The translations under genes were made by a program, and so were the position numbers. A stretch of 64,000 nt of DNA from Mustelus asterias (taxonomy: Eukaryota): NCBI RefSeq assembly GCF_964213995.1, contig NW_027590122.1, positions 992,001 through 1,056,000 of the forward strand, given 5' to 3'. Positions 16,897 to 47,272 of this stretch are shown here, in pieces. The notes beneath the pieces are model-generated. The model worked only from the letters and a program-made list of their open reading frames with translations, searched no databases and was not told where the DNA came from. The stretch's first letter is position 1, and each line of letters begins with the position of its first letter.

Positions 16897-17415
16897 ATGA
16901 AGCTCAGCTTCGCTTCAGTGATCATCTCCCTGGATTTCTTACTCTTCCCTCAGTGTAAGTGTGGTCGCTATTTCTGACAGCGATATTTCACACATTAGCA
17001 ATGCTACGTTCTGTTAAATAGTATTCTGTTTTGTTGTGTTATCTTGTATTATGCATTCAATTGTACTTCATTGTGCAACATTGTATTGCACTATGAGATT
17101 TTAATTTTATGATATTATTGCGTATCTACATATCCTTCCCAGATGCCGCTGGTAGTGAAGAGGTATCACAGTCTCCAGAGTCTGTGGTGGTTACTGAGAT
17201 AGACCTGGCATCGTTGAACTGTTCCACTACTGCAGCTGGACTGGTCCTACAATGGTACAGACAATACCCGGACCGAACCGTGCAGCACCTGGTGAGCGGT
17301 ACCAGCGATCAGGGCAGGATCAGTGCTCGGAACATTGTTGCAGAGAAACGAAGGGCTCTGAATGTTGGTGGCACTCGGGTGACACACACTGCTACCTATT
17401 TCTGTGCAGTCGAGG
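16897..17415 (+). CDS. TCR alpha/delta-like V segment V1 (intact, very short CDR2)
   Basis: Leader 16897-16954 (MKLSFASVIISLDFLLFPQ, GTAAGT donor, phase 1). V exon 17143-17415 with LNC, WYRQ and TYFC. Confidence 0.9.
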
Positions 17416-17454
17416 CACAGTGTTGTAAAGATCAATACGAGTCGTACAAAAACC
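17416..17454 (+). other. 23-RSS of V1
   Basis: CACAGTG + 23 nt + ACAAAAACC, a perfect consensus. Confidence 0.95.
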
Positions 17455-17655
17455 TATAGAGGAGCAGTCCTGACAGTTTGTCGCCTGTGCTTCATCAAAG
17501 AGATAGACATTTTATAAACTTTATTGTAGTAAATCCAGTGAACAACACAGCCCTCCAAATCTATAGCAAATCATTTCCTTCGCAAGCCGTACCGGGAGAT
17601 ATCAGCAGAAGTAGTCGTGTTTCATATGTCATTTGCATCTGTTTGCGATTTTCTG

Positions 17656-17727
17656 GGTTCTGTGGTGTAATGGGTATTACTCTTGACTTTGAATCCAGCG
17701 ATCTGAGTTCAAATCTCCGCAGGACCT
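17656..17727 (+). tRNA. tRNA-Gln(TTG), degenerate and probably a pseudogene
   Basis: GGTTCTGTGGTGTAATGG...GACTTTGAATCCAG...GTTCAAATCTC...GGACCT aligns to vertebrate tRNA-Gln, with stem mismatches. Confidence 0.8.
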
Positions 17728-18030
17728 TGCCTTTCTTTGTCAATGCCGATGATTGCTTTGCTGAAGGACATTCCGCTTAAAGTTTTCACCAAGTGCGAAT
17801 CGAGAGGACAATTTGCCAGCCTATTCCACTGCTATTACAATGCACATTGCTGGGCCTCTGTCGACAGATGCCTGCAACATCAGTGTTTCTCTTTTTCATT
17901 TTCGCTCCTCTTTAACGCTCTGTCGATAGAAAGGAGCAGTTGGTGTCAAAGAGCAACAACCCTTATTGACCAAGAATGTGTATGTGTGAGATCTGAGTGA
18001 AAGACCTCCTGCCTTATACCGGCGCCTGTT

Positions 18031-18102
18031 GGTTTCATGATGTAACAGTGAGCACGTTGGACTTTCAATCCAGCAGTCTGAGTCCGAATCTCGGTGGAAC
18101 CA
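18031..18102 (+). pseudogene. tRNA-Gln-derived pseudogene (anticodon loop now reads TTC)
   Basis: tRNA-Gln body ending AATCTCGGTGGAACC, with damaged A and B boxes. Confidence 0.7.
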
Positions 18103-18133
18103 TGATTCTCATCGTCCCAACTCCTGTTTATCT

Positions 18134-18450
18134 TCATAGAAATCATAGAAACCCTACAGTGCAGAAGGAGACCATTCGGCCCATCGAGTCTGCACCGACC
18201 ACAATCCCACCCAGGCCCTACCCCCACATATTTACCCACTAATCCCTCTAACCTAGACATCTCAGGACACTAAGGGGCAATTTTTAGTATGACCAATCAA
18301 CCTAACCCGCACATCTTTGGACTGTGGGAGGAAACCGGAGCACCCGCAGGAAACCCACGCAGACACAGGGAGAATGTGCAAACTCCACACAGACAGTGAC
18401 CCAAGCTGGGAATCGAACCCAGGTCCCTGGAGCTGTGAAGCAGCAGTGCA
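18134..18450 (-). mobile_element. Shark SINE with CR1-type tail
   Basis: Near-identical to 1-328. Confidence 0.85.
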
Positions 18451-18496
18451 TCTTGGGACTCCTGTTTATCCTGTTCATGTTGAGTGAGGTTTTGAG

Positions 18497-18535
18497 AGTT
18501 TTTGTACAGGTTCAGCCCAGCTCTGTGTCTCTGTG
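18497..18535 (-). other. 23-RSS of V2
   Basis: CACAGAG + 23 nt + ACAAAAACT on the minus strand. Confidence 0.9.
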
Positions 18536-19427
18536 GGTCTCAGTGCGCAGTAATACACCCCGAAGTCTGCCAGCTCTGTTTTAGACATTTTCAGCGGGAC
18601 GGTACGGGTTGTATCATTGAGCTCTGCTGATAAACGGTCCCCTGGGAATCTCTCTTTGTTCCCGGTATATTTGCTTCTCCTCAGCAGGTACTCCATGGAT
18701 CCGCTGGGATACTGACGGTACCAGAATAGGTAATAATTGTCAGTGCTTGGAGTTGTATAATTACAGAATAACTGAACATCATCTCCTTCACTCACTGTGA
18801 CTGCAGCCGGTATCTGTGAAACTGGATCTCCTCCACATTGTCCTGTAAGAGCCAAGAGTCATGCTAAATTAAACGATGTCAGTTCACTTTGTTTAATGGC
18901 CGGATTCGGCCCGTCACCCTGGCCAATAATCTGAAAAACGAATCACAGCATCTAAACAGGAATATAAATCCCGCAACACGCAGGTTGTAACGGGAACGTG
19001 TTTGTCGCGGTTAAATGACACTCCGTTAAATGAACACCTTCTAAGGAGATCAGATCCTCGCCTTCGTTTCACGTTATTTGATGGGGAAACTAAACTGTCC
19101 GTGGGTTTTAGATCTCGGGTTTGTCAACGCTTTCATCCAGATTTTATCAAGTTTGTCAAAGTCCCTCAGCGGCTCCGGCGGGGCCTGCAATCCCACCTTA
19201 ACTCTTCACTCTCATTCAGCTGAGGTATTTTGCCTCCTCTCTTGGTGAGACAAAGATGATTCTAATTGATATTAGAATCAATATATACTTTTACCAGTGC
19301 GTTAATCGAACTGCTCAATTGAATGCAGTGAATGGTAAATATGTGAAACGCAGAGTTTGTAACTTGTGAACCTACCGGTTAGTAGAGCTGCAGCTGTGAG
19401 GAATAAGCTCAGAGTCACAGGAGACAT
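18536..19427 (-). CDS. TCR alpha/delta-like V segment V2 (intact)
   Basis: Leader 19427-19376 (MSPVTLSLFLTAAALLT, GTAGG donor). V exon 18842-18536 with LFC, WYRQYP and VYYCALR. Confidence 0.9.
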
Positions 19428-19789
19428 GTTTGCAGAGAGGTCGAGGCGGATGTGAGCAGAGAGGGTTGAAGTTAACATTTTAATTGTCAAGAGCTGGTGA
19501 GATGTTGAGTTACATCCGGGCCGTTGTTGATTGGTTCATTCCTGACAACGTCATTCATTGACATCCAACCTTAGAATTCCATTGTCTTCAAATGACCCAA
19601 TCAGCGCACGGCTCCCTTGGCTCTCAGCGTCGGGAGAAATAAACTAAGGAGTTTGTTCCCCCCTCGGGGACCTGGAAAGGGATGAGACCCAAACTTGTCC
19701 ATTTAATCGCTTCAACCTGTAAAGCGGAGTGAGAACAGGAAGTCGGTTAATTTTATTAATTTTTTAACTGTTCTCTTCCTTTTATTCCT

Positions 19790-20230
19790 GTATTGTCTTT
19801 CTTATCCGCCTCCTACTCTTTCCCCTTTCCTTATCTTTTCTCCTCCTTTGCTTCCCTTTCTCCCCGTTTTCACCTCTCTCCCACCAATTTTACCTCTCTC
19901 CCACCAATATCCCTCCTCCCCCCTTATCTTCATCTGTCACAGCTTACCCTCTGATTTCAGCTTCTCTGCCGTTTGGCCATTCACACCTACTATTTCCTCT
20001 ATGGACTGCAATTAGCAGCCTTTCCCTTTGTTTTTGTGGCTATGACTCATATTTCATTCCCTCACCCTACAGTATAAATATCTCCCACTTTCTATGCATT
20101 TTAGCTTTGACAAAGGGTCATCCGGACTCGAAACGTCAGCTCTTTTCTCTCCTTATAGGTGCTGCCAAAGCAGCAGAGATATTCCAGCATTTTTCTTTTG
20201 GTTTCAGCATCCGCAGTAATTTGCTTTTAT
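19790..20230 (+). mobile_element. Penelope-like element terminal fragment
   Basis: Pyrimidine-rich tract followed by a decayed hammerhead-like core (TTGACAAAGGGTCATCCGGACTCGAAACGTC). Related pieces at about 3600-3780, 10100-10260, 30985-31150, 41035-41166, 50990-51080 and 53460-53640. Confidence 0.5.
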
Positions 20231-20556
20231 TTTAAATTAGTTAATGTTGTTCCTGAATCATAGCTGGAGCCCAAATTAAAAGAGCTGATCTCGAACTGTG
20301 AAAGCTCACCATAGCTGATGCAAGAGGCCACTGAGTCCTGAGAGAATTGAATACAACAATGTGGTAAATAGCCAAACAGCATCTTTTAAATGGGATGAAT
20401 GGAGGGCTAGAATTGGCTATTTAATAGATTTACGCAGAATGAGAGTGGGTGGACTCCGCATGTAGACCCTGACCTTAGGATCTCGATCACTTGCAATATT
20501 CGCAGCATACTTATACAAAAAAAATCGTGTTCACGGTAAAGGGGTGGTTCGTCCAA

Positions 20557-21450
20557 ACTATGTTTCTGCATTTGTTCCTTCAATCAAATTTTCTTCAGTA
20601 AAGACACTCGCTCCGATAATGAACTTAATGCAATGTCCTTCTGTCCTCTCCTGGTGGCAAAAAAGGACTACAACATGCAACTTTAAAACAACCTGTTTCA
20701 TTTCTGGAAGCAAGATTGATTCCAACAACTGCTGATCATTCTCCTCAGTATGAAGTATATTTTTAATTTCTCTTCTTTTTGATTGCGCCTGGTGGTATTC
20801 ACATCTGAGAAAGTACCTGCACCAGTGTTCAACTGGTTTCCAACACTGTGAAATTTGGACGCAGGACTAAACGGCAGCTTTGCTTAGTTGCAGCCTAAAG
20901 TTGGTTAACATAATGATTTTTTAAAAATGTCGGGTTGCGCAGAAATCGGTTTTGGCAAACTGCTTGATCATCACCATCAATTGGGTATTTTGTCAGAATT
21001 AACACTGGCTATGTTTCATGATGTTAGTTCCAGTTTCCACTATTCCCCCCAACCCGCATCTTGTATTAGAAATAGATTTTATGTCATCCATTCTACTTCT
21101 ACCTGAACTCCTGAAGATAGAGGTGGAGTGACACAGTGATCCGCTCTAAAAGGATTGTTGGAACATCGGATGATCAATGAGTTGCAACAATGAAAATCGG
21201 ATTTAATACCACCAGGCGCAATCAAAAAGAAGAGAAATTGAAAATATACTTCATACTGAGGAGAATGTATGATCAGCAGTTGTTGGAATCAATCTTGATT
21301 CCAAAAATGAAACAGGTTGTTTTCAAGTTGTATATTGTAGTGCTTTTTTCCACCAGGGGAGGGCAGAAGGACACTGCATTAAGTTCATTATCGGAGCGCG
21401 TGTTTTTATTGAAGAAATTTTGATTGAAGGAACAAATCCAGAAACATAGT
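20557..21450. repeat. Inverted repeat with arms of about 245 bp (20557-20799 and 21205-21450) and a spacer of about 405 bp
   Basis: The arms are close reverse complements, e.g. GATTGCGCCTGGTGGTATT and AATACCACCAGGCGCAATC. Confidence 0.9.
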
Positions 21451-22071
21451 GTTAACACTGATAACAAACTTATTATTTTTTGAAATATTCTTATGAATTG
21501 TCAATGTTGCCACTCCTGTAGTTATGTAACATACATTCGATGGCTAGACCAGTTCCCATTGCACAAGTTCCCAAATTATCGAACGATATTTTAGGACTAA
21601 CACACCGGGACTGGTCACAATGTGGAATGAGACTTCAGAAAGAACGAGAGAGCAAAATGCACTGCAATCGTTGGATCGTAGAACAGAAGGAAAGTTGTAA
21701 GCTCTCCCGCAATAAAAGAGCTATAACACGAAGGAGGAAACAGCTGTTCTCATTTATAACTATCTTGTGAACTGCAACTTGTCGAAGATCCAAGTGAAGA
21801 ATTGCACCCTGGAATTACCAGTATTCACCAGTAGAGAGCAGTGTGTCCCGTGAGAAATATTTAATCTGGGCGTGTCAGGTGTGTACTCAGAGGCTGTGTG
21901 GGCCTGTGTCAGTGTGAAACGCTCAGTATGGGTGGCTAAAGTAGAACCCGCCTAATGTTGTCAGTTCAACATAAACACGGCACTGAACTGAACCCGAAGA
22001 AAATACTTGGTTCCGGGTTAATTTTCATCTCCTGGTTCAAAGCTGACCTCGGTGTTGTGTGTGAACTGAGA

Positions 22072-22404
22072 ATGGTCAGGATTTGCATCGACGTTTTGTT
22101 GTTTTTCACTCTGATCTGCACGGGGATGACCGGAGAAGCTGAGTTGCTGCAGCTCCCTCCACGGATGGTTATCAGTGAAGCGAGAAATATATCCATGAAC
22201 TGCACTATTTCCATTACGTTTGACACCGTGCGTTGGTATAAACAGCTCCCGAATCAGTCGCCCCAGCATCTGGTGATGGCCACAAGCGGAACCGATCAAC
22301 ACGGGAGGATCACTGCTTCGATCGGAGAAGGCAACAAACTCAGCATCCTGACTGTGAGAGACGTACAGGTTTCAGACACTGCCACCTATTTCTGCACCAT
22401 GAGG
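22072..22404 (+). CDS. TCR alpha-like V segment V3 with leader and V in a single exon
   Basis: ATG 22072 gives MVRICIDVLLFFTLICTGMTG, continuing in frame into EAELLQ...MNC...WYKQ...DTATYFC. Confidence 0.85.
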
Positions 22405-22443
22405 CACACTGTAATAAACACAGGCAGGTCCCGTACAGAAACC
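22405..22443 (+). other. 23-RSS of V3
   Basis: CACACTG + 23 nt + ACAGAAACC. Confidence 0.9.
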
Positions 22444-23102
22444 TGCACCGTTTTCAAAAACCGCTCCGCAGAAATATCAGTGTTTCAACAAGCGCGGTAT
22501 TAAATTCCAATGGTAAGGGGGGTGAGAGCAAAACATTTCTTGAATCAGAAAATTTTAAAAAGCTTAAAATGAAGAGAGTTGGGAATGTATTCAAAGAAAA
22601 TGGAAGAGGTTACATGCAAATCAGAATGAAAGAAAGACAAAGCGAAAAAGTGCAGTAAGAATACGTAGAGCTCAAAAAATCCGGAAGCAATGCAAAGAAG
22701 AAAGTCAAAAATAGCGACTGTGATGTGATGCATTTTGGCAGGAAAGAAGCGTATTAAATAAAAGGTGCGAGATTGCAGAAGTCTGAGATTCAAAGGGATT
22801 TGCCTGTCCTCGTGCGTGAATCACAAATGTTCTCTGACAGGTACAACAAGCAATGAGAATATTGTCGTTCAGCTCAGTTGCTGGATATCTGGTTAGTGAT
22901 GCAAAGCATCAATATCTGTACCCGGTGAGGTCATTCATGAAGCTGCCGCCATCTCAACCTCGACCGCTCTCCTGAGGCGATGTGCGATCCTCAGGTTAAA
23001 TCGCCTCCAGCCTCTGCGGCTATGGCGACTTTGCCTTTATTGTCACCGTCTCACGGCGTGAGAGCGCCCTCTGCTGAGCACTAACTGGAACACTTACTCT
23101 GG

Positions 23103-23880
23103 GGCTTTTGTATCAGATCCGCTATCGCAGTGTGGGGTTTAAGTCACATAAATATACCTCACGGTCAGTCATCAGCGTGTTGCCGATCATTAACTCGGTA
23201 ATCTTGACAGTTTTATTTAATGAAGCTGGAAGCGGTCGCTGATGTCGGTGTGTTTGTACAGTTTCCCTCCCATAATACGAAGCATGTCGTGTGGAGGCTG
23301 CCCGGGGCTCTGACTATAACCAGTACACATAAGGGTTAGAAGTGCTCGTCTTCATGTTGCAGGTAACTGTGACATTACTTTCCTCTTCAGTTGTTATTTT
23401 GGCATCCGACTGCTGCACCGTGTCTTGGTGACACCATTCTAACATAAAATAAGGGCAAACATAAAAGTAATGTTTAAATAAAAGTAATTTTATGCCTAGT
23501 CCCAGTGGGACTAGGCATAAAATGGTTCGGCACAGACAAGAAGGACCAAAAGGCCTGTTTCTGAGCTGTAATTTTCTATGGTTCTAATCAGTACGAGCCG
23601 AATATTCCTCAACAAAATCGTCATCAGAACGATCATTATTATTTGTCAGCAATAACATTTGGTTTTGCGGAAAGGAAATACATAAACACGTCGAAGATAG
23701 GAGCAGGAGTAGTCCATTCAGCCCTTGGATCCTGCCCAGCCATTCATTTTGATCAATGTTTGATCATACAATTCAATAACCGGATCCCATTTGCCCCATA
23801 TCCTTTGATCCCCTTTGCGTCAAGAGCTACTTACTGAGCAGTGGGATAATGATGAGGATCGGAATGAGATAGTTCACCAT
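23103..23880 (-). pseudogene. V pseudogene V4 (paralogue of V5; V exon not in the ORF track)
   Basis: Leader 23880-23835 (MVNYLIPILIIIPLL, GTAAGT donor). Exon 23438-23135 reads WCHQDTVQQSDAKITTEEESNVTVTCNMKTSTSNPYVYW, then two frameshifts, ending VYLC. RSS is CACACTG + only 16 nt + ACAAAAGCC (23134-23103). Confidence 0.85.
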
Positions 23881-24309
23881 GATCCTTCCTGAGTCTGTAA
23901 CTCTGCAGTGAAAGAAATCCTCTGTCAGAGACAGAAATACAGTTGCCCGTCCCACTACATTGCTCATCCAACCAATGAGAGGAGTGCAGCAATCTGCCCA
24001 ATCACACAATCGGGTCAGAGTGAGAGCAGCAAACGGGCGCGGATACGGAGTGAAGTGTGCGATGACTCTCAGCTGCACTCGGAGCGAATGGAGCGGAAAT
24101 AGCGATGGTTAAATCTACAGAAGTCTCTGACCATTCTGCACCTGCTCACTGTTCAAGTCTCGAACAATAAATAGAGCGACTGGGACATGAAGCAACGAGA
24201 ATCATAGAATTTTTGAGCAGCGAATGAGGCCATTCGTCCTATCTATGTCTCTTTGGAAGAGTTCTCCAAATCATCATTCATCCCTGCAAGTGACAGGATT
24301 CTTTGTTCA

Positions 24310-26855
24310 AAGAACAAAGAACAAAGAACAGTACAGCACAGGAAACAGGCCCTTCGGCCCTCCAAACCTGTGCCGCTCCTTGGTCCAACTAGACCAATCG
24401 TTTGTATCCCTCCATTCCCAGGCTGCTCATGTGACTATCCAGGTAAGTCTTAAACGATGTCAGCGTGCCTGCCTCCACCACCCTACTTGGCAGCGCATTC
24501 CAGGCCCCCACCACCCTCTGTGTAAAAAACGTCCGTCTGATGTCTGAGTTATACTTCGCCCCTCTCAGCTTGAGCCCGTGACCCCTCGTGATCGTCACCT
24601 CCGACCTGGGAAAAAGCTTCCCACTGTTCACCCTATCTATACCCTTCATAATCTTGTATACCTCTATTAAATCTCCCCTCATTCTCCGTCTTTCCAAGGA
24701 GAACAACCCCAGTCTACCCAATCTCTCCTCATAGCTAAGACCCTCCATACCAGGCAACATCCTGGTAAACCTTCTCTGCACTCTCTCCAATGCCTCCACG
24801 TCCTTCTGGTAGTGCGGCGACCAGAACTGGACGCAGTACTCCAAATGTGGCCTAACCAGCGTTCTATACAGCTGCATCATCAGACTCCAGCTTTTATACT
24901 CTATACCCCGTCCTATAGAGGCAAGCATACCATATGCCTTCTTCACCACCTTCTCCACCTGTGTTGCCACGTTCAAGGATTTGTGGACTTGCACACTTAG
25001 GTCCCTCTGTGTTTCTATACTCCTGATGACTCTGCCATTTATTGTATAACTCCTCCCTACATTATTTCTTCCAAAATGCATCACTTCGCATTTATCCGGA
25101 TTAAATTCCATCTGCCACCTCTCCGCCCAATTTTCCAGCCTATCTATATCCTGCTGTATTGCCCGACAATGCTCTTCGCTATCCGCAATTCCAGCCATCT
25201 TCGTGTCATCCGCAAACTTGCTGATTACACCAGTTACACCTTCTTCCAAATCATTTATATATATCACAAATAGCAGAGGTCCCAGTACAGAGCCCTGCGG
25301 AACACCACTGGTCACAGACCTCCAGCCGGAAAAAGACCCTTCAACCACTACCCTCTGTCTCCTATGGCCAAGCCAGTTCTCCACCCATCTAGCCACTTCT
25401 CCTTGTACCCCATGAGCCTTAACCTTCTTAACCAACCTGCCATGTGGGACTTTGTCAAATGCCTTACTGAAATCCATATAGACGACATCCACGGCCCTTC
25501 CTTCATCAACCGTTTTTGTCACTTCCTCAAAAAACTCCACCAAATTTGTAAGGCACGACCTCCCTCTTACAAAACCATGCTGTCTGTCACTAATGAGATT
25601 GTTCCGTTCTAAATGCACATACATCCTGTCTCTAAGAATCCTCTCCAACAACTTTCCTACCACGGATGTCAAGCTCACCGGCCTATAATTTCCTGGGTTA
25701 TCCCTGCTACCCTTCTTAAACAACGGGACCACATTCACTATCCTCCAATCCTCAGGGACCTCACCCGTGTCCAAAGAAGCGACAAAGATTTCCGTCAGAG
25801 GCCCAGCAATTTCACCTCTCGTCTCCCTGAGCAGTCGAGGATAGGTGCCATCAGGCCCTGGGGCTTTGTCAGTTTTAATGTTCCCTAAAAAACCTAACAC
25901 TTCCTCTCTTGTAATGGAGATTTTCTCTAACGGGTCAACACCTCCCTCCGAGACACTCCCGGTTAACACGCCCCTCTCCTTCGTGAATACCGATGCAAAG
26001 TATTCATTTAGGATCTCCCCTATTCCCTTGGGTTCTAAACATAATTCCCCTCCTTTGTCCCTGAGAGGTCCGATTTTCTCCCTGACAACTCTTTTGTTCC
26101 TAACGTATGAATAGAATGCCTTAGGATTCTCCTTAATCCTGCCTGCCAAGAACATCTCGTGACCTCTTTTTGCCCTTCTAACTCCCCGTTTGAGATCTTT
26201 CCTACTCTCTCTGTATTCCTCCAGAGCTCCATCTGTTTTCAGTTGCCTGGACTTGACGTCCGCCGCCCTTTTCATTTTAATCAGATCCTCAATTTCCCTG
26301 GTTATCCACGGCTCTCGAATCCTACCTTTCCTATCTTTCCTTTTTACAGGCACATGCCTATCCTGCAGCCTTATCAATAGTTCCTTAAAAGACTCCCACA
26401 TGCCAGACGCGGACTTACCCTCGAACATCCTCTCCCAATCAACATCCACCAATTCCTGCCTAATCCGGCTATAGTCAGCCTTCCCCCAATTTAGCACCCT
26501 GCCCGTAGGACAGCACTCATCCTTGTCCATTACTATCCTAAAGTTAATAGAGTTGTGGTCACTATTTGCCACATGTTCCCCTACCGAAACTTTGACGACC
26601 TGACCGGGCTCATTTCCCAGAACTAGGTCCAGTATAGCCCCCTCTCTAGTCGGGCTATCTACATACTGTTCCAAAGAACCTTCCAGTACGCATTTTACAA
26701 ATTCCTCCCCGTCCGGTCCCCCAGCTCTAAGCACTTTCCAGTCTGTGCCAGGGAAATTAAAGTCCCCCACTACAACAGCCCTATGTTTTCTGCACCTATC
26801 CAGAATCTCCTGACATATCCTTTCCTCCACTTCCCGTGAGCTGTTGGGTGGTCTG
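24310..26855 (-). mobile_element. CR1 LINE (family A), 5'-truncated, with an uninterrupted 813-aa ORF2 portion
   Basis: Endonuclease motifs GDFN, LDLVL and SDH, plus a full RT. (TTCTTTG)n tail. Confidence 0.95.
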
Positions 26856-27039
26856 TTACATACAATTTCCTTCTAAATATTTATGTTTAATATTCTGCCA
26901 CCATTTTAGGCAGTGTGTTTCCAGCTTTGAACAACTGGCAGTGCAACAAGTGAACACGATCATTCAATGCCTTTCCTTCTCTTACACTGGCGTATTTGGA
27001 TTAGCGAATATTCTACTGATTGAAACAGTTTTGCGTTAT

Positions 27040-27640
27040 CTATTGCTCACTGCTTCCTGTCCTGGACACAGAGACCATAACAAATAGGAGCTGCAGTCGG
27101 CCATTTGGCCCATCGAGCCTTTTAAACTATTCAGGGAGATAATTCGTTCATCTACCTCAGCATTATTCTCCCCACACTGAACCCATATCCCTTGATATCC
27201 TCAATATCTAGAAACCAATCAATCGCCCTCTTGAAAATAGTTGATGACTGAGGTTTCACTGTCCTCAGGGGTTGAGAATTCCAAAGCTTTACCACATCCT
27301 TGTCTGTTCCCCATAATCCTTGACACCCTTGTCAGTCAAAGATCTGTCTAACTGGAATATATTCAATGATCCTCAGCCTCCACTGGTCCCTTTGGAAGAG
27401 AAATCCAAAAGACTCACAACCCTCTGAGGAAAGAGATGTCTGGAAATATATAACGTAGCTACAGTTCCATATTACAAGATATTCAGATCCCAAGGAATAT
27501 GACTCTGTCTAGACGTGACGGTTGAGATTTTTGCCTGTGATTCCTCGTTCAAAATCCTGTGAAATGAGTTTGCAAAAGTCATCACAGTCAGAATAGGATA
27601 GAAATTCAGAGCAGACAATTCTAGTTTCTCTGGAACATTC
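27040..27640. pseudogene. Rearranged remnant of a zinc-finger gene 5' region
   Basis: 27040-27120 matches 4215-4295 in direct orientation. 27475-27640 matches about 4405-4570 in inverted orientation. No finger array is present. Confidence 0.6.
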
Positions 27641-28095
27641 TTTCCTATTTCATTCCCAAAAAGTTGTAAATCTCCATCCATATCTATGGATTCTATTTAA
27701 AAATGAAAGTGGATGGGCACTTGATGGAAATAAACTTTCAGGAGAATGGGATATAGAGTGGGAATGGGACTGGAATGTTATACAGAGAGTGGGCATGGAC
27801 TCGAGTTACCGAATGGATTCCTTCTGTGCTGTAACAACTTTATGACTGGAAATGTATAACATCGCTGCTGCATTATATTACAATGCAAGAAATAATAATA
27901 AATATATTTTATTACAGAAACATAAATAATGTAACTAATCTGTGTACCATATAATAACACGAGACATATCTCTGTCCTATATTCATTTACTGTCCCCTTA
28001 AATGTCAGCCATCTCCTGGGGAAAGCTGCCTTTTAATTATGAACATTCGGAAAGAGACCATCCTTGTAGACAGACTGAGTGTAAGTCTAACTGAG

Positions 28096-28118
28096 TCTAA
28101 CCACTGAGCTATGGAGCC
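28096..28118 (-). pseudogene. tRNA-Thr-like 5' remnant
   Basis: GGCTCCATAGCTCAGTGGTTAGA matches the start of vertebrate tRNA-Thr(TGT). The rest is unrecognisable. Confidence 0.45.
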
Positions 28119-28455: not shown

Positions 28456-28517
28456 CCCCGTGAGTGGGAATCAATCCCGGGCACGGGGCCGAATCCTGAC
28501 CACTAGACCTCCAGAAG
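28456..28517 (-). pseudogene. tRNA-Glu remnant lacking the anticodon arm
   Basis: Reads CTGGAGGTCTAGTGGTCAGGATTCGGC...GCCCGGGATTGATTCCC. Confidence 0.6.
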
Positions 28518-36321: not shown

Positions 36322-37768
36322 ATGTTCTGGGTTGTTCCACTTGAGTTTCGTATAATTTGGGTACTTCACGATATCCAAAGGACTTACTACCCACTCCTCG
36401 CTGCAGTTGGTGTGACTGGTGAATCTAATTTCACTCCGGTTATTGCCCGTGTCCATGAAAAGCACTTAATAATATTATTATTTGCAAACGTTATGTTCCT
36501 TATGTGCTAATGCAGTTGGAAGATTTCTCTCTCCTCCCGGCAGCCATTCTCCCTACTCGTGCCTGGTGGTTGCACTCTATTTCCTTCCCTTCCCCCTCTC
36601 TGCCAACATCCCCCCCACCCCATCTCCTTGATCACCCCATTCGTTCCCCATCTCCGCCGGCTTCTTTGCTGCCTTGGAGATCAGATCTGTTGGTGAATCT
36701 GGTTTCTTGCTACATCAGTGCGGTGCTTTATGACTGTACACCCTGTCTCAGCAGAACAGATGAATCAATTTTATTCTTCGGCTGATTCTGTAAAAATGCT
36801 GCAGCTGTTCCATAGAATCCTGACAGACCACTGCTCCTGTTTTCAGTCTGAAATGTGAGTTAATTGTGTCTCTCTTCCTTACAGTGAACTTAATAACGAT
36901 TCTTATACTGTCTCGAGGAAGATGTGGACTTTCCAAATGTGTCACACGTTACCTAATCTCCATGTCAGCGGCAGATCTGCTGGTCATCATCATTGATCTC
37001 ATGTTGAGGCAAATTCCTATCATTTTTAGTGATCAATTTCTATTCGTCTATAATATTAAAGTGTGTGATATCCATGCCGTCCTGCTTTATGCTGTCACTG
37101 ATTGTTCTGTTTGGTTTACTGTCACGTTCACCTTTGATCGATTCGTGGCCATTACCTGGCAGAAGCTGAAAATAAAATACTGCACCGAGAAAACGGCAGC
37201 TGTGGTTCTCGGAACAGTGAGTGTGCTGTTCAGTGTAAAGAACACTTTCTGGTACTTCATGTATGAGGATACATATTTGTTTGCAAATTCTCCCTATTTT
37301 TGTTCTGTACTTTCAGATGTCAGGAATTCACCAATATGGCGAGCAGTTGAAAATCTACATTATATTTTAACACCGTTTGTTCCTTTCTTGTTGATTCTGC
37401 TGCTCAATGTTTTAACCGTTAAACATATTCTAATGTCGAGCAAAATCCGCAAGAGATTTCGGAGCCCCACGAGTGGCGAGATTGCAACTGACCCAGAGAT
37501 AGAGAAGCGAAGGAAATCTATCATCTTACTGTTTTCTCTATCTGCAAATTTTATCCTGTTATGGTCAGTGTACCTGTTCAGTTCTTTTTGTCTACGATTG
37601 TATGATTTACGTGTAATCATTTTCTACATACCTGGGTGTGTAATCGAACTGGGATTTATGCTTCAACTCCTGAGTTGCTGCACCAACACATGCATTTATG
37701 CAGTGACCCAGACACAATTCAGAAAGGATCTGAAGAAGCTGGTGAAATTTTATTTACTCGGATTGTGA
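36322..37768 (+). CDS. Two-exon class A GPCR, GPR139/GPR142-like (326 aa)
   Basis: Exon 1 36322-36418 (...IQRTYYPLLAAVGVT, phase 1 GT). Exon 2 36885-37768 after CCTTACAG. Seven hydrophobic helices, AADLLV, FTFDRFVAI and TNTCIY. The frame is preserved across the splice. Confidence 0.88.
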
Positions 37769-38585
37769 AGTTAATTAAAGAGTGAGCAGATATTCCACCA
37801 TCACAGCATGTTTGTCTGGGGTCTGCACAGATTAAGTGATGAACAGGAATTAGAGAAATAGTAAAAATGAAATTATTTGGCACCTGATGAATTACTCCGG
37901 ATTTGAACCATTTAAATGTTCTGATGTATCATGAGCTGGGCACATTGAACTCCAGTGTAGAGTGTCCTCCTTTTTACCTGGGAGGGATGTTATTGACTGC
38001 AGCATTTTCCTTCAGCTGCAACATACCTCCTCCCCCCGCCCCCATGAAAAGAGCTGTCATTCCATCCTTCAAGCACAGCCCTACCCTCAGCCCATCGGCA
38101 TTATCACCTGCACCATCCCACCCCCACTCCCACCCACAGCACCACCCCGCACCGCCCCCCCCACCACCACCACCAACAGCCTTCAGCGCCACACCCATCC
38201 CCAATAGTGAACGCTATGGATTGGATTAGGAATGAATCAGAGTGGATGAGGACACTTTTCTGGGTTCGATTCAAGCATCTATGTATTCTAATTCCATTTT
38301 CTAGCACTTGACCCGTAGTCTTGTATATTATGGCATTTCAAGTGCTCATCTAAATACTTCTTAAATGATGTGATGGTTCCCATCTCTATCTCCCTATCAG
38401 GCAGTGAGTTCCAAATTTCCACCACCTTCAGGATGAAAATGTTTTCCTAACATCTGCTCTAAAACTCATGCCCCTTAAAATCAATTCATGCCCCTTGGTT
38501 ATTGATCCACCTGCTAAGGGGGAAAGTTCTTCCTCTCCGCCCTATTTGTGCCATTCATAATTTTATACACTCCAATCGAAGACAT

Positions 38586-38880
38586 TTATTTGTTTAATGT
38601 TGTCACAAAGAACATAGCATGTATTAATGCTGCAATTAAGTTGTTGTGAAAATCCCCTAGTCGCCATACTCCGACGCCTGTCGCTAAACTGAGGGATAAT
38701 TTAGCATGGTCAAAGCACCTAACCAGCTTGTCTTTCGGACTGTGTTCAGAAACCAGAGCACCCGGAGGAAACTCAAACAGACATGGGGAAAACGTGCAGA
38801 CTCCACACAAACAGTGACCCAAGCTAGCAATCCAACCTGCGTCTCTGGCGCTGTGAGGCATCAGTACTAACCACTGTGCC
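38586..38880 (-). mobile_element. Shark SINE, alternative-tail variant, inserted in a CR1 3' fragment
   Basis: SINE head and central domain, flanked by minus-strand CR1 relics (KVQRNFTRMLPGL). Confidence 0.75.
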
Positions 38881-39729
38881 ATTGTACCTCCAATCAGGTC
38901 CCCCCCCCCCCCCCCCCAGGCTTTTCTGCTGTAATGAAAATAACTCCAGCCTATGCAACCTCTCTTCATGGCCGAAACGATCCAGGCCAGGCAGCATCCT
39001 GGTGAAGTTCCTCTGCACCTTCTGTAGTGCAATCACGTCCATCCTATTGTGTTACGTCCAGAACTGCACACAGTAATCCATCTGTGGCCTCAGAAGTGTT
39101 TTATTTTGCTTCATCATAACATCCCTATTCTTGCATTCAATCTCATTCTCTTCCTTCCAGAATGATTATAAGGTTACTCTTGTCCCCACTTTTCACATCA
39201 CCAGCGTCTGCATTCACTGAATAATCCTCCACTATTTCCAGCAATTCGAGCATGATGCCATGACAAGAAGAATGCGTTTAGAAGAATGGTGGGTGATCTC
39301 ATTGCGGAATGTAAGATGCTAACGGGGATTGACAGAGTGGACATCGAGAGGATATTTCCACGTGTGGGGCAATCTAGAACGAGAAGTCATGGCTAAAGGG
39401 ACAGCAGATTTAGAACAGATGAAGATAAAATTATTTTCTTAAAAGGTTGATAATCTGTGGAATTCTGTATCCCAGAGTGCTGTAAATGGTAGGTCATTGA
39501 GTACATTTAACGCGGATATCGACATTCTTAAAATAAACCTTTTCACAAAATTGATCTCTGTTGGTTTTACATCCCAGAGGACGTCCTCACTTCATATCAC
39601 TCACTCAGAATTTTCATCCATTTCTTTCTCCATTATATCTTTATTTCTCTTCCCTTTGACTGCATCCAGAATCTTCACCTCCCCAATCCTTATGGTAGTG
39701 ATGATAGGAGGGGAACATTGTTATTACCG

Positions 39730-40012
39730 TGGGCGGTAGTGGCACAGTGGTTAGCATTGCTGCCTCACAGCGCCACGGACCTGTGTTCGATTCCCGTTTT
39801 GGGTCACTGTCTGTGTGAAGTTTGCACGTTCTCCCCTTGTCGACGTGGATTTCTTCCTGGTGCCCCGGTTTCCTCCCACAGACTGAAAGATGTGTTGGTT
39901 TGGTGCATTGAACAGAACAGGCACCAGAGTGTGGCGACTAGGGGAATTTCACAGTAACTTCATTGCAGCGTTAATGTAAGCCTTACTTTTCACTAATAGA
40001 TAAACTTCAACT
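39730..40012 (+). mobile_element. Shark SINE, alternative-tail variant
   Basis: Similar to 13423-13705. Confidence 0.8.
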
Positions 40013-41125
40013 TTTAAAAATAAATAATCTAATTTCTAATTATCAAATCAACTCATGATCACCGAGTCCGTGGGCTGAACACACATCCCCATTCTGCTCA
40101 AATCCATCAAATAGACAATCCGCTTTCCCTCACCATTTAGTTCATTTACAATGTGTTGTTTATCTATTTCCCATTCTGGTCTTTTCCAATCGCTGAGGAC
40201 CCAATGTCCGCCGCTATCGACTGCAGGGAATTCTCACCATTATAGAGTAGCGATTTAAATTAGAGCACCCAGAAGAGGTACTGGAAAACCAAAAGCTATT
40301 TCACCTCTCTATCCACGCCCGAGAGATTGGAAATGTTATACGGTCATCATTCAGTTTGATTGCATTCCAATTCACTGCAGTGAGATGTTTCCCTCTTTAA
40401 CAACAGTCCTGATGAGAATCTTGTTTTGTTGACTTCCAGAAACATAGAAAATAGAAGCAGGAGTAGGTCATTTGGCCCTTTGAGCCTGCTCTGCTGTTCA
40501 ATATGATCATGCCTGATCCCTTATCTCAACACCATTCTCCACTGATCTCCCCAAACTCCTTGATGCTTTCAGAGTCTGAATATATCTCAGAAGGAAATAG
40601 ATATATTTCTAATGTTTTGGCTTCCACAGCCTTCTGTGCTGGTGAATTCCACAAGTTCACCACTCTCTGCATGAAGATATTTCTCCTCATCTCACTCCTA
40701 AATGGTCTACCCCATATCATATTTCATATATTATAATCATGTTTGATTTCAGGCATTATCAAGACCATCTTAGTTTTGGATAGTCTTTCATAACCTAAAA
40801 ATAACTCACTAAATTTTCCCTGACTTTTTTTCCTAAATTAACCCAAATTCAAGTAGAAGTATTGTTGTGCAAAATAAATAGTTTTTGACGCTGAGGAACC
40901 ACCTGACTGTTAGTTGTTAGTTTCTTTTTGTTCTGACCATGTGATTATTCCCTTAAACATTCCATTTGGATGTTTGAATCAGCCAATCGTATCAATTTAT
41001 TTTGTCAATTTCAAGTTGAGGAACAATCTCTTAAGATAAAGCAAATGACTGCGGCTGCTGGAATCTGAAACAAAACAGAAAATGCTGGGATCTCAGCCGG
41101 TCTGACAGCATCTGTGGAGACAATA

Positions 41126-41166
41126 GAGCCGACATTTCGAGTCTGGATGACCCTTCATCAGAGCTC
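41126..41166 (-). ncRNA. Minimal type I hammerhead ribozyme candidate
   Basis: GAGCU CUGAUGA A GGGUC AUCCA GACUC GAAA UG UC GGCUC: intact core with paired stems I and II. Confidence 0.6.
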
Positions 41167-41283
41167 AACAATTACATCCAGCCTTGTTGACTTTAAATGG
41201 TGATTTACATCAGCGACATAAACGCTTGCAATCGGTAATATGAGGCTGACTCTGATTGTCATTATTGCTGTTGTTTCTGTTAG

Positions 41284-41587
41284 AATGGACCCTCCAAGAC
41301 AAAGTGGAACAAATGGATCCTGAAATATCGGTTAAAGAGGAAAGTAATGTCACACTAACCTGTACCTTGAAAACAAGCGATTCCAGCCCTCATGTGTACT
41401 GGTACAGTCAGCAGCCCGGGAAAGCTCCAGTGTACATGTTTCAGCTTATAGGTGAGAACGTGCAAAGGAACACCGACCTCAATGATCGGTTTTCTTCCAA
41501 ATTTAATAAAAAGAACACGATTACCGAACTAACGATCAGTAACACACTGATCTACGACAGCGCCGTGTACTTCTGTGCCACGAAGCC
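41284..41587 (+). CDS. TCR alpha/delta-like V exon V5 (open; leader exon not found)
   Basis: Acceptor TTTCTGTTAG at 41283 is shared with V4. Reads WTLQDKVEQ...LTC...WYSQQPG...DSAVYFC. Confidence 0.85.
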
Positions 41588-41627
41588 CACACTGCTGCAG
41601 AGATATAGTGAATGCCGTGCAAAAACC
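41588..41627 (+). other. RSS of V5 (24-nt spacer)
   Basis: CACACTG + 24 nt + GCAAAAACC. Confidence 0.8.
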
Positions 41628-42942
41628 CCAGACTTCCAGTTAGTGCCCAGCAGGGTGCGCTCACACATTATCGCAGGTAATACAGTTTCCACAGAGTGTC
41701 GAAAACTCTTAACATTGCAACAAATGACAACACTCAAAAACAGCAACTGGTGTGGTCCCATTGCAGTTATATTTGTCAATGATCGTAACTGACATGTGCA
41801 ATTGAATTAAGATTGACAAATCGATCTGAGATACATCAACGCCTTCTCTTTGGTTTTCGATGCCTTTCCCTGCCTATTTGTCCCAGACTGTCCTTGTCTG
41901 CTGATTTATGGAAATTGTGTCCCTTTCCCTTCCCCAACCTTTAACGTAAACATTTAAAGTTTTTTCTGTTACCTCGTACATTCATTGAGAACCTCTCCAA
42001 TCCAGCTACTCAGTTATTCGGTCCCACTTTCCATCTACATCACTGATGAAGATCCCGCTTTGTATTGGATCATTTACTAACCCTGACCTTCCTGGTGCGA
42101 GACTGTTGGTCCGCGGTATGGAATGAACATTCAGCTGCCGCTCCTACAGACAGGCAAATTTATATGATTTCCAATGTGATAGTGTTATTGAGTTCAATTC
42201 CTTGCAGATAAATTCTACTTCTCACCACACTGCCTATGGCAGCCACACCCACAGCTTTCCTGTGTGGTTCTCACTTTGACCTGCCTCATCTGTGTTGTTT
42301 TATTAGAGATTTTATTGTAGATATTGACCTTTGCTGCTTTTCCCTGTTTGGCACCGATTGGATCAGCAGTCCAATGGCGTGGCAAGCTATACTTCCACTC
42401 TGAAAGAGGATTTCACAGGCGGCAAAGTTACAAATTGAGGGAAGATCGTATGGAAATATCACAGACTCTTCATTATTCTACCACTTCTTGTGAAGTACAT
42501 GTTTCAACTAAAAATTCATCCTCCCCCGCACTGTAGCTGCTGTCCCAAACATGATCGATAACAAACTGCTTGACATGTTGCTGTAGGGATGAACATTGTC
42601 ATTCTCCATGTCAGAACAGACCCATCAACACTCAGGGGACCGGTCGGTTCATGAAATAACTGTTGAAGAGGAAAATAATCCCCTGCCGTGGGATGGCCAA
42701 CTTCACTTTGTTCCTTCCGTCTCTCCGCCTATGGGGTGAATTGGAGATAAAGGAGCTGTGAGATCATTGGGTGAACTGAAGAACAAAGGAGCTTGAAGCC
42801 GATTGGATGTCATCTGATGATGTTTCCAGCAGTGAACCAATCCACAGGGGCCTGGATATGACTCCGCCTCTTTCAACTCTTGACTGAAACAATGACATCT
42901 CCCACCCGCTCTGGTCAGATCCGCCGCGAGCTCTCTGCAAAC

Positions 42943-43793
42943 ATGTCTCCTGTTACTCGGTATTTATTCCTCACAGCGGCAGCTCTGTTAACCGGTAATT
43001 TCACAAGTTGCTCAAGTCTGTGTTACACATCATTACCACACACTATATTCTGTCAGGCAGTTCCTTCAATGCGAGGGGGAGGGGGTCGGTGATGAGGGAA
43101 CGGATTGATCTCAACATCGAAAAGTTATCCGGATTTCGCTGGTCTCATCACTGGACACTGTTGGGATTGGGCACATTTCCCCCAGGGATTGATAGAGAAT
43201 GAGTTGGGCTCAGATTCCAGCTCCCCTGATACCAGTGAATCACTTTGGCAAACATCACACTTCAAACAGACCGTGAGCAGTTTCCAGTTACAGGGACTGA
43301 AGTCGAGGAACTGATCTCGTTAGAAAGAACAATGTTTATCGTGGAAGTTTTATTGAATCGCCACAAAAACTTCCCAATCCAGCCGCTGAACCTTCTCTCT
43401 CAGATTATTTTTGCCGATAACGGGCGAATTCTGGGGGAAACGGAGTCAAGTCACAATGTTTAATTTAATATTTCTTTGGACTTTTCCAGGACATTCCCGA
43501 GGAGATTCTGTTTCACAGACAGCGGCTGCAGTCACCGTCACTGAAGGAGATGATGTTAGGTTGCTCTGTAATTACACAAGTACAAGCAGCGACCTTTATC
43601 TATTCTGGTACCGTCAGTATCCCAGCGGATCCATGAAGTATTTTCTGCACACAAATAAATACACCGGGAACACAGGGAGATCCAAAGGGGACCGTTTTTC
43701 AGCGGAACTCAATGATACAACCCGCACAGTCCCGCTGAAAGTTTCTAAAACAGAGCTGACAGACTCCGGGGTTTATTACTGCGCACTGAGTCC
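42943..43793 (+). CDS. TCR alpha/delta-like V segment V6 (intact; paralogue of V2)
   Basis: Leader 42943-42994 (MSPVTRYLFLTAAALLT). V exon 43490-43793 with LLC, WYRQYP and DSGVYYC. Confidence 0.92.
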
Positions 43794-43832
43794 CACAGAG
43801 ACACAGAGCTGGGCTGAACCTGCACAAAAACT
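43794..43832 (+). other. 23-RSS of V6
   Basis: CACAGAG + 23 nt + ACAAAAACT. Confidence 0.9.
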
Positions 43833-44869
43833 GCCAAAGCCTCACTCAACACAACAGAGCGTTAGGCAAACATTGTGATCAGAGTGAGTCTGATCTGGAA
43901 CCTGAAATCGTGTTGTTATCTCAAACTTTTAATTCTAATATATATATATGTATTAATAATAAATATATTACCAAACTAAAACAATGGGGGCAGCTTAGGG
44001 AATGAACATTTCACTATTTGTACAGTTTGATGTCCCAAAGTGTTTCCCTGTCACTGTGGAAAACACAGCAGCCAATTTGGACTCAGTGTGACATTTCATT
44101 CAGTAATATTGTAGTGTTCTCTCTGTTTCAGTAATTGTGATTGGTGAACAGATATCAAACAGGACATTTCTCTGCTCTTCTTGGAAACAGTGACCATGTG
44201 ATGTGTCACCTCCAACTGAGAGGGAACACGGTGCCCCCGATTGAACAGGTCACCGAGTGGCTGACAGCTCTGAAGGTGCAGCGTTCCCTGAGCACGGCAC
44301 TGTCCCCTCGGTAAGTTCCCGGATTCTTATTCCTGCCAGACTGCCTGTGTCCTCTGGAGCGGAAAGAATATCTGAACCGACTGGAGACAGAATCCGGGAA
44401 ATCCTAGGAAGTGGTGGCCACTCATTAACCCAATCCGGGAAAGAAACGGATTTAAATTCAAAAAATGAAATTAAAAATAAACTTTTCTGGCCGTGGAAAT
44501 ATGAAGACAATGAATTTAATCTCCAGAAAGAAATTTCAGTCGAAAACAGCAGTAAAGATTTTTATTGATGCCTTTTACAGACTTCCGATGTCCAAAAGCA
44601 CTTTCTAACCCAAGGAAGCTCATTTCCAGTGTCGTGCTGTGGTGATGTTAGAAACTTTATTAACACAGAATACAGTGGGAATGTTTAATTCTCTGTCAGA
44701 CAGGGTTGCCACACTGATCCTGGAGTAAAGAGATTGCGGAGTCCAGGTATTTGAAGGTTACTTTGAACTCTCTCACACACAAGGACACACGCACACACTC
44801 TCCCTCTGTCTCTCGTTGCAAAATCTCTGTCAGAGAGTGTGGCAAAACCTGTGCAAAATCTCACTAACT

Positions 44870-45168
44870 GTCCTGTCTGGAGACAATACACATCTGTTTA
44901 ACCTGTGCTTAATGCTTCCTCCACTCACATTGTCTGTACCTTTAAGACTTGATTAGCTGTAAAGACTCACATTCCAATCATTATTCATGTAAATTGAGTT
45001 TGTGTCTTTGTGCACTGTTTGTGATCAGAACTCCCACCCACCTGACGAAGGGGCAGCGCTCCGAAAGCTCGTGGTTTTTGCTACCAAATAAACCTGTTGA
45101 ACTTTAACCTGGTGTTGTTAGACTTCTTACTGTGTTTACCCCAGTCCAACGCCGGCATCTCCACATCT
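44870..45168 (+). mobile_element. Penelope-like terminal repeat fragment (second type)
   Basis: Hammerhead core followed by AATAAA and CCTGTTGAACTTTAACCTGGTGTTG. Confidence 0.5.
45038..45074 (+). ncRNA. Minimal type I hammerhead ribozyme candidate
   Basis: CCAC CUGACGA A GGGGC AGC GCUCC GAAA GC UC GUGG. Confidence 0.65.
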
Positions 45169-46730
45169 TGTCTAGGTCACCAGAGGAACAGATTGCGAAA
45201 TCATGAGACATATCTTTATGGCGCAATGCATGCAGTTAACCTCCAAATCTACTTCAGAGCAGCGGTAATGCAAGCTCCCAGATGTAGAGATCATGTAGCC
45301 AAAAATTACTGTTATATCATCTTCCAGGGCCGTTAACTGAGATTGCGCCAGCAATTCCTAGAACCAAACATTGGATGTGTCAAAGTCTGCTGTAGTTATG
45401 AATGCTTGGATTGCTCAATAATAATTTCAACACAGACTCACCTCGTTAAAAAGGCTGTATTATCCGACAGTACCACGCACCACTTCCTGAATCAGTCGCT
45501 AATCAGCCATGCTAAACTCTCCCTCAGTGTACCCGAACAGGCGCCGGAGTGTGGCAACGAGGGGATTTCCACAGTAACTTCATTGCAGTGTTTATATAAG
45601 CTTACTTGCTACACTAATGAATAGACTGAAGCACTGAACTTCTGATCTAACCAATGACAGAAATCGACCAGCGGCAGCAATGTCTCGAAAAGCACAATGG
45701 TGTTAGAATGAAAAGCAGCAACCGGAAACTGTGGCCGGGGTCACCGCAGACTCAAAGCTGATGGAAGTGCGGAGTTCTCAGCGGCAGTCGCAGGTGATGG
45801 AGAGGAAATAGCGGCGGCTGAACCTGCAGCAGTCTGTGACTAGCCTGCATCTGCTGACTGCTCAAGTGACTGAGAAAAAATAGTGACGGACGGGCGCGAA
45901 TGGATCAGAAACAATTGACTCTCCCTGTGGCTCAATGAAAGATCTTTCCCAATTGCTCTTCTCACCCCGCATTCCACGAGTTGTTTTCCGTTCTCAAGGT
46001 CTGGCAATGCCTTTTTGAAATTTACTATTGAATGCTCTTCCTTTATAGTTTGTGGCGCTCTACTCCAGATGGTAACAAGTGGCAGTGCAATGAATAACAT
46101 TTATCGATCCCTGTCCACTTTTCTGTGAAAATGGGATGACTTGGTCGTTTATTTATCGAACAGGTGTATTGCTGTCTTTGTTCGTTCAAGTCAACAGCGA
46201 ACCGGTCCGAGAGACCTTGGGACCTATCTCAATGTCTGGCCCTCTACCACTTCATTAAATATCCCATAACTTACCCGGAATACTGCTCTGTCTAGATAGG
46301 TACAGAAAGCTTTCAGATATGGAGTGACTGTCCCTTAGCACTCCTGACTGGTCTTTCAGAGCGTTCAACTCCGATGGAGTCTGGGAAACTCAATGTCTGT
46401 CACTCGTCCCTGCAGCCGAACTTAGAATGTGTCACAGACTGGAATGGGATTTATCACAGGAAATAGACAAGGATCCTTTTAATATTGACTCACCGAATAC
46501 CACGATTATTCCAATTTGGAAGCACCATGGAACATGCGCTGCCCGGATGACATTTCCACAGAAAATAACCCAATTTAAATGTATTTTATCCGTTCTGTTT
46601 TGATTTTAAAGAGTAAACCCAAATCGGCAACAGATCTCACTGATCGGGTGACTGCGGCGCGTATCCAAGGGAGAGAGTGATTAAAAGCCCAGCTCTCTGC
46701 ACAGGCTCCACTTTCTGGATGATCGCGGCA

Positions 46731-46769
46731 GGTTTTTGTACGGCCCTGTACGGTCTTTGCTACATTGTG
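46731..46769 (-). other. 23-RSS of V7
   Basis: CACAATG + 23 nt + ACAAAAACC. Confidence 0.92.
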
Positions 46770-47272
46770 CCTCCATTGCACAGAAATAGGTGGCGGTGTC
46801 TGTCAGCCGAGCTTCACGAACATTCAGAACGCTGTGGTTCTCTGAGAAAGTATGCCGAGCCGTGATCCTGCCCTGATCGCTGGTACCGGTCACCAGGTGC
46901 TGCACGGTTCTGTCTAGATTTTGTCTGTACCATTGAAGGACCTCTCCAGCTACTGTGGTTGAACAGTTCAACGATGCAGTGGCTTCCTCGGTAACAACCA
47001 CTGACTCCGGAGACTGTGATAGCTCTTCACTGCCAGCGGCATCTGGGAAGAATATGTACATTTGCAGTAAGAACATATCGTACTATAATGTAGCACAATA
47101 AAGTACAATTGTATTCACAATTCGAGATGATATAATAAAGCTGAGTACAATTTAACAGAACCTAACATTGCTGAGGTGTGAAATATTCCTGTCAGAAATA
47201 GTGACCACACTTACACTGAGGAAACAGTAATAAATCCAGGAAAATAATCACCAAAGTGAAGGTCAGAAACAT
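46770..47272 (-). CDS. TCR alpha/delta-like V segment V7 (intact; paralogue of V1)
   Basis: Leader 47272-47215 (MFLTFTLVIIFLDLLLFPQ). V exon 47042-46770 with LNC, WYRQ and DTATYFC. Confidence 0.92.

Follow-up and report, generated by a model that had tools for sequence, protein, structure and literature searches.

A stretch of 64,000 nucleotides from the elasmobranch Mustelus asterias (contig NW_027590122.1, positions 992,001 to 1,056,000; this whole stretch is called the window here) carries a group of antigen-receptor variable (V) segments, and two of them, V1 and V7, have only 60 residues between their canonical cysteines. VNAR has the same total. The original prediction, drawn from this sequence, held that the pair have almost no second complementarity-determining region (CDR2) and may belong to a T-cell receptor (TCR) V lineage that lost it convergently and recognizes antigen unconventionally. 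Are V1 and V7 such a lineage? We find both genes intact and assign them to an expanded elasmobranch TCR alpha/delta V family in which the CDR2/C'' region is shortened by a fixed three residues. The family probably works as a conventional paired V-alpha domain.

Two intact V segments with a shortened CDR2

A six-frame scan of the window recovered eight V domains in intact frames and, near 60 kb, one V with a frameshift. The recombination signal sequences (RSSs) of these genes have spacers of 23 or 24 nucleotides, and no joining (J) or constant (C) segment was found in the window. V1 lies at 16897–17454 on the forward strand and V7 at 46731–47272 on the reverse strand. The two are built alike, with a 58-nucleotide leader exon (V1, 16897–16954, 19 codons plus one base; V7, 47215–47272), an intron of 188 (V1) or 172 (V7) nucleotides that begins with GTAAGT and ends with TCCCAG, and a 273-nucleotide V exon (17143–17415 and 46770–47042), and each gives a single open frame once spliced. 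The RSS of V1 (17416–17454) has a perfect heptamer, a 23-nucleotide spacer and a perfect nonamer; that of V7 (46731–46769) has one heptamer mismatch (CACAATG), a 23-nucleotide spacer and a perfect nonamer. The open frames, good splice sites and near-perfect RSSs (zero and one mismatch) that had been claimed for the pair were thus confirmed. V1 and V7 are 82% identical in DNA and 73% in protein, and both follow the TRAV/TRDV plan of leader, intron, V exon with Cys23, Trp41 and Cys104, and 23-spacer RSS. In V1, the Asp of the D-x-A-x-Y-x-C motif before the second cysteine, conserved elsewhere, is His, a substitution that had been overlooked.

Recounting reproduced each of the spacings given in the original prediction. 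The canonical cysteines are 60 residues apart in V1 and V7, 63 in V3 (22072–22404, forward strand), the normal-length sister family that serves as comparator, and 71 in V2; from the conserved Trp to the GR motif there are 19 residues in V1 and V7 and 22 in V3. V3 has its leader and V in a single exon, without a leader intron, and we read the related proteins P0033 and P0066 in the same way. IMGT positions here and below were numbered by hand, counting from Trp41 and Cys104, and are not formal IMGT assignments. Between IMGT position 55 and GR there are five residues, GTSDQ, in V1 (17298–17312) and V7 (46873–46887), compared with eight in V3, in the elephant shark protein P0016 and in mouse V-alpha 11 chains, which we take to be of TRAV4 type. 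If the entire deficit is placed in CDR2, the hand count gives a CDR2-IMGT length of 2 versus 5, the latter being the length that we assume for the mouse chains.

The mouse chains concerned (2B4, 5c.c7 and 226) are the best PDB sequence matches of the family, share its Cys-to-Trp distance of 10, and have been solved in complex with classical major histocompatibility complex (MHC) class II. They differ from the family in three extra residues before the turn, a Trp-to-GR distance of 22 and a Cys-Cys distance of 63. In these chains and in V3 the loop ends with S-G-T, three residues and GR. Since V1 and V7 keep this pattern of turn, three residues and GR, the lost residues most likely sit just before the S/T-G-T turn. 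To speak of almost no CDR2 was therefore to overstate the case: the loop is three residues shorter than that of V3 and of the mouse TRAV4-type chains, the turn is kept, and the hand count of 2 differs from the zero CDR2-IMGT length of CDR2-less TCR V genes.

The comparison with VNAR

One explanation of the equal cysteine spacing is kinship of the family with VNAR, or its convergence towards a single-domain, VNAR-like architecture able to bind free antigen. To compare the two, we located the genome's own VNARs (L102 was confirmed against VNARs in the PDB) together with V genes that, on our own reading, are of NAR-TCR type. The Cys-Cys total of 60 is indeed equal, but it is partitioned differently, as 10+1+49 in V7 with a Trp-to-GR distance of 19, and as 13+1+46 in VNAR with a distance of 16. 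All eight NAR-type rows have 16 from Trp to GR and 46 from Trp to Cys, where the family has 19 and 49, so the family does not carry the NAR deletion. VNAR and NAR-TCR V domains resemble the family in their Cys-Cys total (59–62) and in the want of a conventional CDR2; they differ from it in a Cys-to-Trp distance of 12–15, the Trp-to-GR distance of 16, a charged former pairing face and a clade of their own. Judged from these counts, the equal total is a coincidence, reached in the family because its CDR1 is short and its CDR2 has lost a little, and the VNAR parallel appears superficial. A link by cysteine spacing alone was rejected, as 60 also occurs in two of 244 V-like domains, both from proteins with several Ig domains that look unlike TCR V.

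The sequence relatives of V7 lie elsewhere. Aligned to elephant shark P0016, V7 reaches 70.5 bits; aligned to the genome's VNAR, it reaches 21.2. All 60 PDB sequence matches listed for V7 are antigen-receptor V domains, with mouse TCR alpha chains on top, and each of the five V7-PDB alignments shown contains a single three-residue gap. A shared-word homologue search found one relative of nearly the same length and none among longer proteins. Our tree comprised 56 rows and 94 columns, after removal of 17 near-duplicate or partial rows and then of 13 more, including two long branches. In it, five short-loop rows form a clade (99/96) nested in a starred clade of 16 rows (98/91), the other 11 being V rows of normal length, V3, elephant shark and bamboo shark among them, and the nine VNAR/NAR-TCR rows form a separate clade (100/99). 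Because the free tree puts the short-loop rows among normal-length cartilaginous-fish V segments, the shortened CDR2/C'' region most likely arose apart from VNAR. The idea that CDR2 was lost independently survives in that respect, with the qualification that what is seen is a shortening and not a loss.

We modelled V7 with AlphaFold2 from a 48-row alignment, with a predicted local distance difference test score (pLDDT) of 93.6. The model has strands A, B, C, C' (residues 43–48), D, E and F, and a single bridge at C''. It matches TCR alpha chains with a Z of 14.0 and a root-mean-square deviation of 1.1 over 85 aligned residues. In a wide structural search, TCR reached a Z of 12.8, and the sole VNAR among the 50 matches listed ranked 32nd with a Z of 11.3; VNAR was absent among the matches listed in other PDB searches, which we do not count as evidence. 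IMGT positions 42, 44, 50 and 103, which we take to be V-V pairing residues, are Tyr, Gln, Val and Phe in the family. VNAR/NAR-TCR rows, by comparison, have Asp or Glu at position 50 in four of five cases and Glu at 52 in five of five, and the family lacks the polar or charged former pairing face that marks them. With a C' strand in the model, pairing residues kept and TCR alpha chains as the best structural matches, V7 does not look like a VNAR-like domain. The family is a TCR V lineage, as had been proposed, and apparently a functional one; its closest relatives in both sequence and structure are TCR alpha V domains.

Some observations still favour VNAR. IgNAR and NAR-TCR V genes share contigs with family members, one VNAR did appear among the structural matches, and an approximately unbiased (AU) test did not reject a tree in which the short family and VNAR/NAR-TCR were forced together (p 0.127, 94 columns). 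Set against these are the different partition, the modelled C' strand and retained pairing residues, the gap between 21 and 70 bits, the separate starred clades, and the window itself, in which neither a downstream D-J cassette nor a supporting V was found beside V1 or V7. We therefore regard kinship with VNAR, or convergence on its architecture, as very improbable and as largely refuted already.

The family, its transcripts and its locus

A search of the genome with V7 returned 139 matches, and the family counts given here rest on the best 55 of these. Defining an intact copy by a full exon, no stop, an AG acceptor, a leader and a CAC heptamer, we counted 44 intact and 11 broken copies; the intact ones comprise 38 distinct DNA and 32 distinct protein sequences. 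All 44 align to V7 without a gap, so the short spacing is not a matter of chance. An assembly error or a deletion in a single gene was rejected on the 44 intact copies and the presence of the family in two other organisms, and a family of pseudogenes on ratios of replacement to silent change (pN/pS) of 0.21–0.37 in framework regions 1 and 2 (FR1 and FR2). Some copies on other contigs are near-identical over 3.27 kb including flanks, with 3269 and 3258 of 3270 bases the same. They may be assembly redundancy, which leaves the true gene number uncertain.

Might V1 and V7 be idle passengers of segmental duplications, remote from any J, although other members of the family work? The near-identical copies with their flanks, the broken fifth of the matches counted, the missing Asp of V1 and the want of a J or C in the window would all fit. 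On the other side, frames, splice sites and RSSs are intact in both genes, and the identical copies may reflect the assembly. The contig group that carries the family also carries immunoglobulin heavy chain (IgH) clusters and IgNAR and NAR-TCR V genes, and an elasmobranch antigen-receptor complex with such a mix has been described, in which TCR alpha/delta V exons lie dispersed among the IgH clusters (PMC12227049). We consider it unlikely that V1 and V7 are idle, and the proposal is in any case compatible, at the level of the family, with the best explanation.

Placement of the family in an alpha/delta locus comes from another contig, C546. Three intact V7-type copies lie there at 40.8–60.8 kb, inverted with respect to a J array and about 77–97 kb from it. 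J-C units were located by a pattern search for 12-RSSs; on C546 the array of 12-RSS segments runs from near 137 kb to a terminal TRAC-like exon at 240 kb, so labelled by its position behind the J array, a PDB search having given weak C-domain matches only. Searches of the genome for TRAC with Pfam DUF1968 and with the published nurse shark C-alpha primer gave no match.

The same assembly holds a second J-array and TRAC-like unit on C71 at 18.37–18.42 Mb (L169–L175, L186), beside that on C546 at 137–240 kb (L181–L185, L187, L197–L200). J motifs number 34 on C71 and 116 in 130–220 kb of C546. Protein identity between the two C exons is only 80%, and around them 1400 of 1806 aligned bases agree; C exons and flanks are too divergent for the units to be alleles. 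They may, from their sequences, represent a duplicated TCR alpha J-C locus, of which no report was found in the literature searched. No V, J or C was found in the 200 kb sampled of the roughly 850 kb of C71 beyond 19.58 Mb.

Among the sequencing runs listed, none recorded as RNA contains this stretch. Two runs from another organism and a single study (X1 and X2), which we guess to be RNA, each contain one 343-base contig that aligns over the V exon of V7 without gaps, at 20 differences. Past the acceptor the contig has 76 further bases, the first 30 of which match the leader end at 26 positions. Leader end and V exon thus meet at the predicted acceptor with no intron between them, and what the contig shows is splicing, not productive rearrangement.

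A motif search of 447 nurse shark clone rows (Ott et al. 2018, PMC5931798, supplementary file 3) found one row, aV9.1J_T09_102810, labelled TRA V9, that is like V7 in its spacing of 10, 19 and 60 and is about 56% identical to it without gaps (47 of 84 residues, translated and counted by eye). The clones of the set are described there as TCR alpha sequences whose CDR3-J junctions are complete, obtained by C-alpha-primed rapid amplification of cDNA ends. This clone is the only short-loop row among 19 labelled aV9, a mixed group that also holds V3-type clones and is excluded from the CDR length figures, and its short loop goes unremarked in the available text of the paper; here, in contrast, the family is genomic and large. 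The label aV9.1 itself (rows 385–403 of the file) spans at least four unlike types, VH-like, V3-type and short-loop among them. Compared by eye, V2 of the window looks like nurse shark alpha V1 clones. The shortening is a real and heritable trait: the short-loop family is present in at least three organisms, namely this genome, the organism of X1 and X2, and nurse shark, and the elephant shark relatives found are of normal length.

Alternatively, the family could serve mainly in TCR delta chains, for which MHC contact is unneeded and CDR2 would be free to shrink as in cattle TRDV1. Such use is in keeping with the report that, of seven delta V families in nurse shark, five have V segments also found in alpha cDNA (PMC5931798), and with a cattle TRDV1 CDR2 that is three residues long or absent (PMC2846910). 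It would also suit three 12-spacer RSSs at 120.8–121.3 kb of C546 (L180:814–1302), which lie between the V genes and the J-alpha array and may be delta D or J. As for C-linked evidence, however, only the clone in the nurse shark alpha set was found, and we think predominant delta use distinctly improbable.

Other features of these regions were recorded along the way. In the window, two open-frame V genes, at 41588 (forward) and 50602 (reverse), have RSS spacers of 24 and not 23 nucleotides, and the frameshifted V pseudogene, at about 59700–60043 (forward), has a good 23-RSS. Calls for tRNA-Gln (17655–17728), tRNA-Glu (18030–18103) and tRNA-Val (54397–54470) lie amid the V genes, the first two between V1 and V2. 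Elsewhere in the genome there are about 14 V3-type genes in tandem, spaced at about 2.46 kb (C71, 19.36–19.40 Mb; L036, L037), a TCR V family with two extra cysteines flanking a short CDR2 (C24, 52.75–52.78 Mb; L077, L078, L079), and a germline-joined IgNAR V-D-J with a short CDR3 (L102:4499–4790, C71, 2.93 Mb), which has degenerate relatives on other contigs.

Selection on the loops and use of the family

Selection was assessed on the 38 distinct intact sequences, with the reservations that pairwise pN/pS values are not independent and that gene conversion could distort the counts. pN/pS was 0.37 in FR1, 0.21 in FR2, 0.80 in FR3, 11.3 in CDR1 and 0.06 in the short loop. CDR1, the family's diversifying loop, has five residues by the same hand numbering (V1, 17232–17246; V7, 46939–46953). 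Changes counted on a tree gave 22 replacement and no silent changes in CDR1, the frameworks having 84 and 45 (Fisher p 0.0003), and CDR1 accordingly looks to be under positive selection. The short loop had one replacement and three silent changes; GTSDQ is identical in 37 of the 38 sequences, and the FR2 sites adjoining the loop are equally invariant. Tested against silent changes, the loop gave a Fisher p of 0.13, and constraint on it is suggestive only.

This contrast between the loops brings up an innate-like T cell lineage, in which the invariant five-residue stub would dock on a ligand without polymorphism, for example a non-classical MHC molecule, and the diversification of CDR1 would serve to read the different antigens bound to it. 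The near-fixed GTSDQ, with a similar loop in the nurse shark clone (by eye), the excess of replacements in CDR1 and the expansion of the family are what such a lineage might show. Innate-like lineages, however, usually draw on a single conserved V gene or a small number of them, and here there are dozens with diverse CDR1; the equal invariance of the adjoining FR2 means that the constraint may be structural. Salmon TRAV3, which lacks CDR2, shows no J restriction, its J use being as broad as that of the conventional TRAV19 (PMC8559430), and just one matching row was found among the 447 nurse shark clones, a set biased by family-specific primers (PMC5931798). An innate-like lineage is unlikely on this evidence. 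Slightly less likely again is the fuller version, in which an old elasmobranch TCR alpha lineage of dozens of genes, with an invariant CDR2 stub on a non-polymorphic MHC-like ligand and a CDR1 driven to diversify, would form a germline-diversified innate-like T cell system in sharks.

Nor is a short CDR2 without precedent. In salmonids, TRAV CDR2 lengths are given as 0–10, and every TRAV3 gene lacks CDR2 and is expressed; trout TRBV6 and cattle genes are cited there as further CDR2-less cases (Edholm et al. 2021, PMC8559430). Salmonid TRAV3, a functional TCR alpha V subgroup, resembles our family in its many genes and reduced CDR2, and differs in that its CDR2 is wholly gone. Cattle TRDV1 is likewise an expanded V subgroup of the alpha/delta locus with a short or missing CDR2, but it is mammalian and used in delta chains, and its CDR2-less genes are classed as open reading frames pending proof of expression (PMC2846910). 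Large germline changes to CDR1 and CDR2 still let many CD4 and CD8 T cells develop, according to a review (PMC7185327). Given these salmonid, cattle and altered-CDR cases, a short CDR2 is neither new nor, by analogy, a sign of MHC independence, and the idea that V1 and V7 are unprecedented falls to the complete losses published for salmonid TRAV3 and cattle TRDV1 and to the nurse shark clone of the same spacing. The shark and teleost losses look independent, because the teleost V rows P0138 and P0095 (both short) and P0115 lie outside the shark clade in our tree, among whose rows salmon TRAV3 does not figure. No text on a short-CDR2 shark TRAV family was found in the literature searched, outside which most subscription journals fall and whose figures and supplements may bear on the point.

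We return to the conventional paired V-alpha domain, the use that we think probable. Several points weigh against it. The loop of V1 and V7 is short for described shark families, since the nurse shark CDR2 lengths stated are 5–7, from a 45-clone subset without the aV9 group (PMC5931798). With one change in five sites where the framework rate predicts about 5.8 (Poisson p 0.02), its conservation hints at a fixed ligand. The contig of X1 and X2 ends just after the second cysteine and does not cover the V-J junction; the nurse shark row could be read over its V part only, its J part not being visible, so that no in-frame junction was seen. The window's own contig has no demonstrated J or C link. 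The forced grouping with VNAR survived the AU test. Finally, the V7 model is not independent proof, as its alignment was rich in TCR alpha rows and the fold from a single sequence failed, being helical with a predicted template modelling score (pTM) of 0.33, and was discarded.

As a conventional V-alpha, the family would be used as follows. RAG would join V to J-alpha, presumably by inversion for the three C546 copies, which face away from the J array. The domain is predicted to keep strands A, B, C, C', D, E and F and to lose most of C'', and with Tyr42, Gln44, a hydrophobic residue at 50 and Phe103 retained it would pair with V-beta. Docked on peptide-MHC, CDR1 and CDR3 would do most of the work of the alpha chain, and the short conserved S/T-G-T turn would make a small constant contact or be structural only. 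A single deletion in an elasmobranch ancestor, independent of VNAR, likely gave rise to the short loop.

The family lends no support to a second, VNAR-like origin of single-domain recognition. Instead, cartilaginous fish join salmonids, other teleosts and cattle as lineages with a shortened alpha/delta CDR2, apparently independently, and the shortening predates the split of Mustelus asterias and nurse shark. This bears on how far MHC restriction needs germline CDR2 contacts, and for that question the family offers a ready test set of dozens of genes, with one fixed short loop, a diversifying CDR1 and a normal-length V3-type sister.

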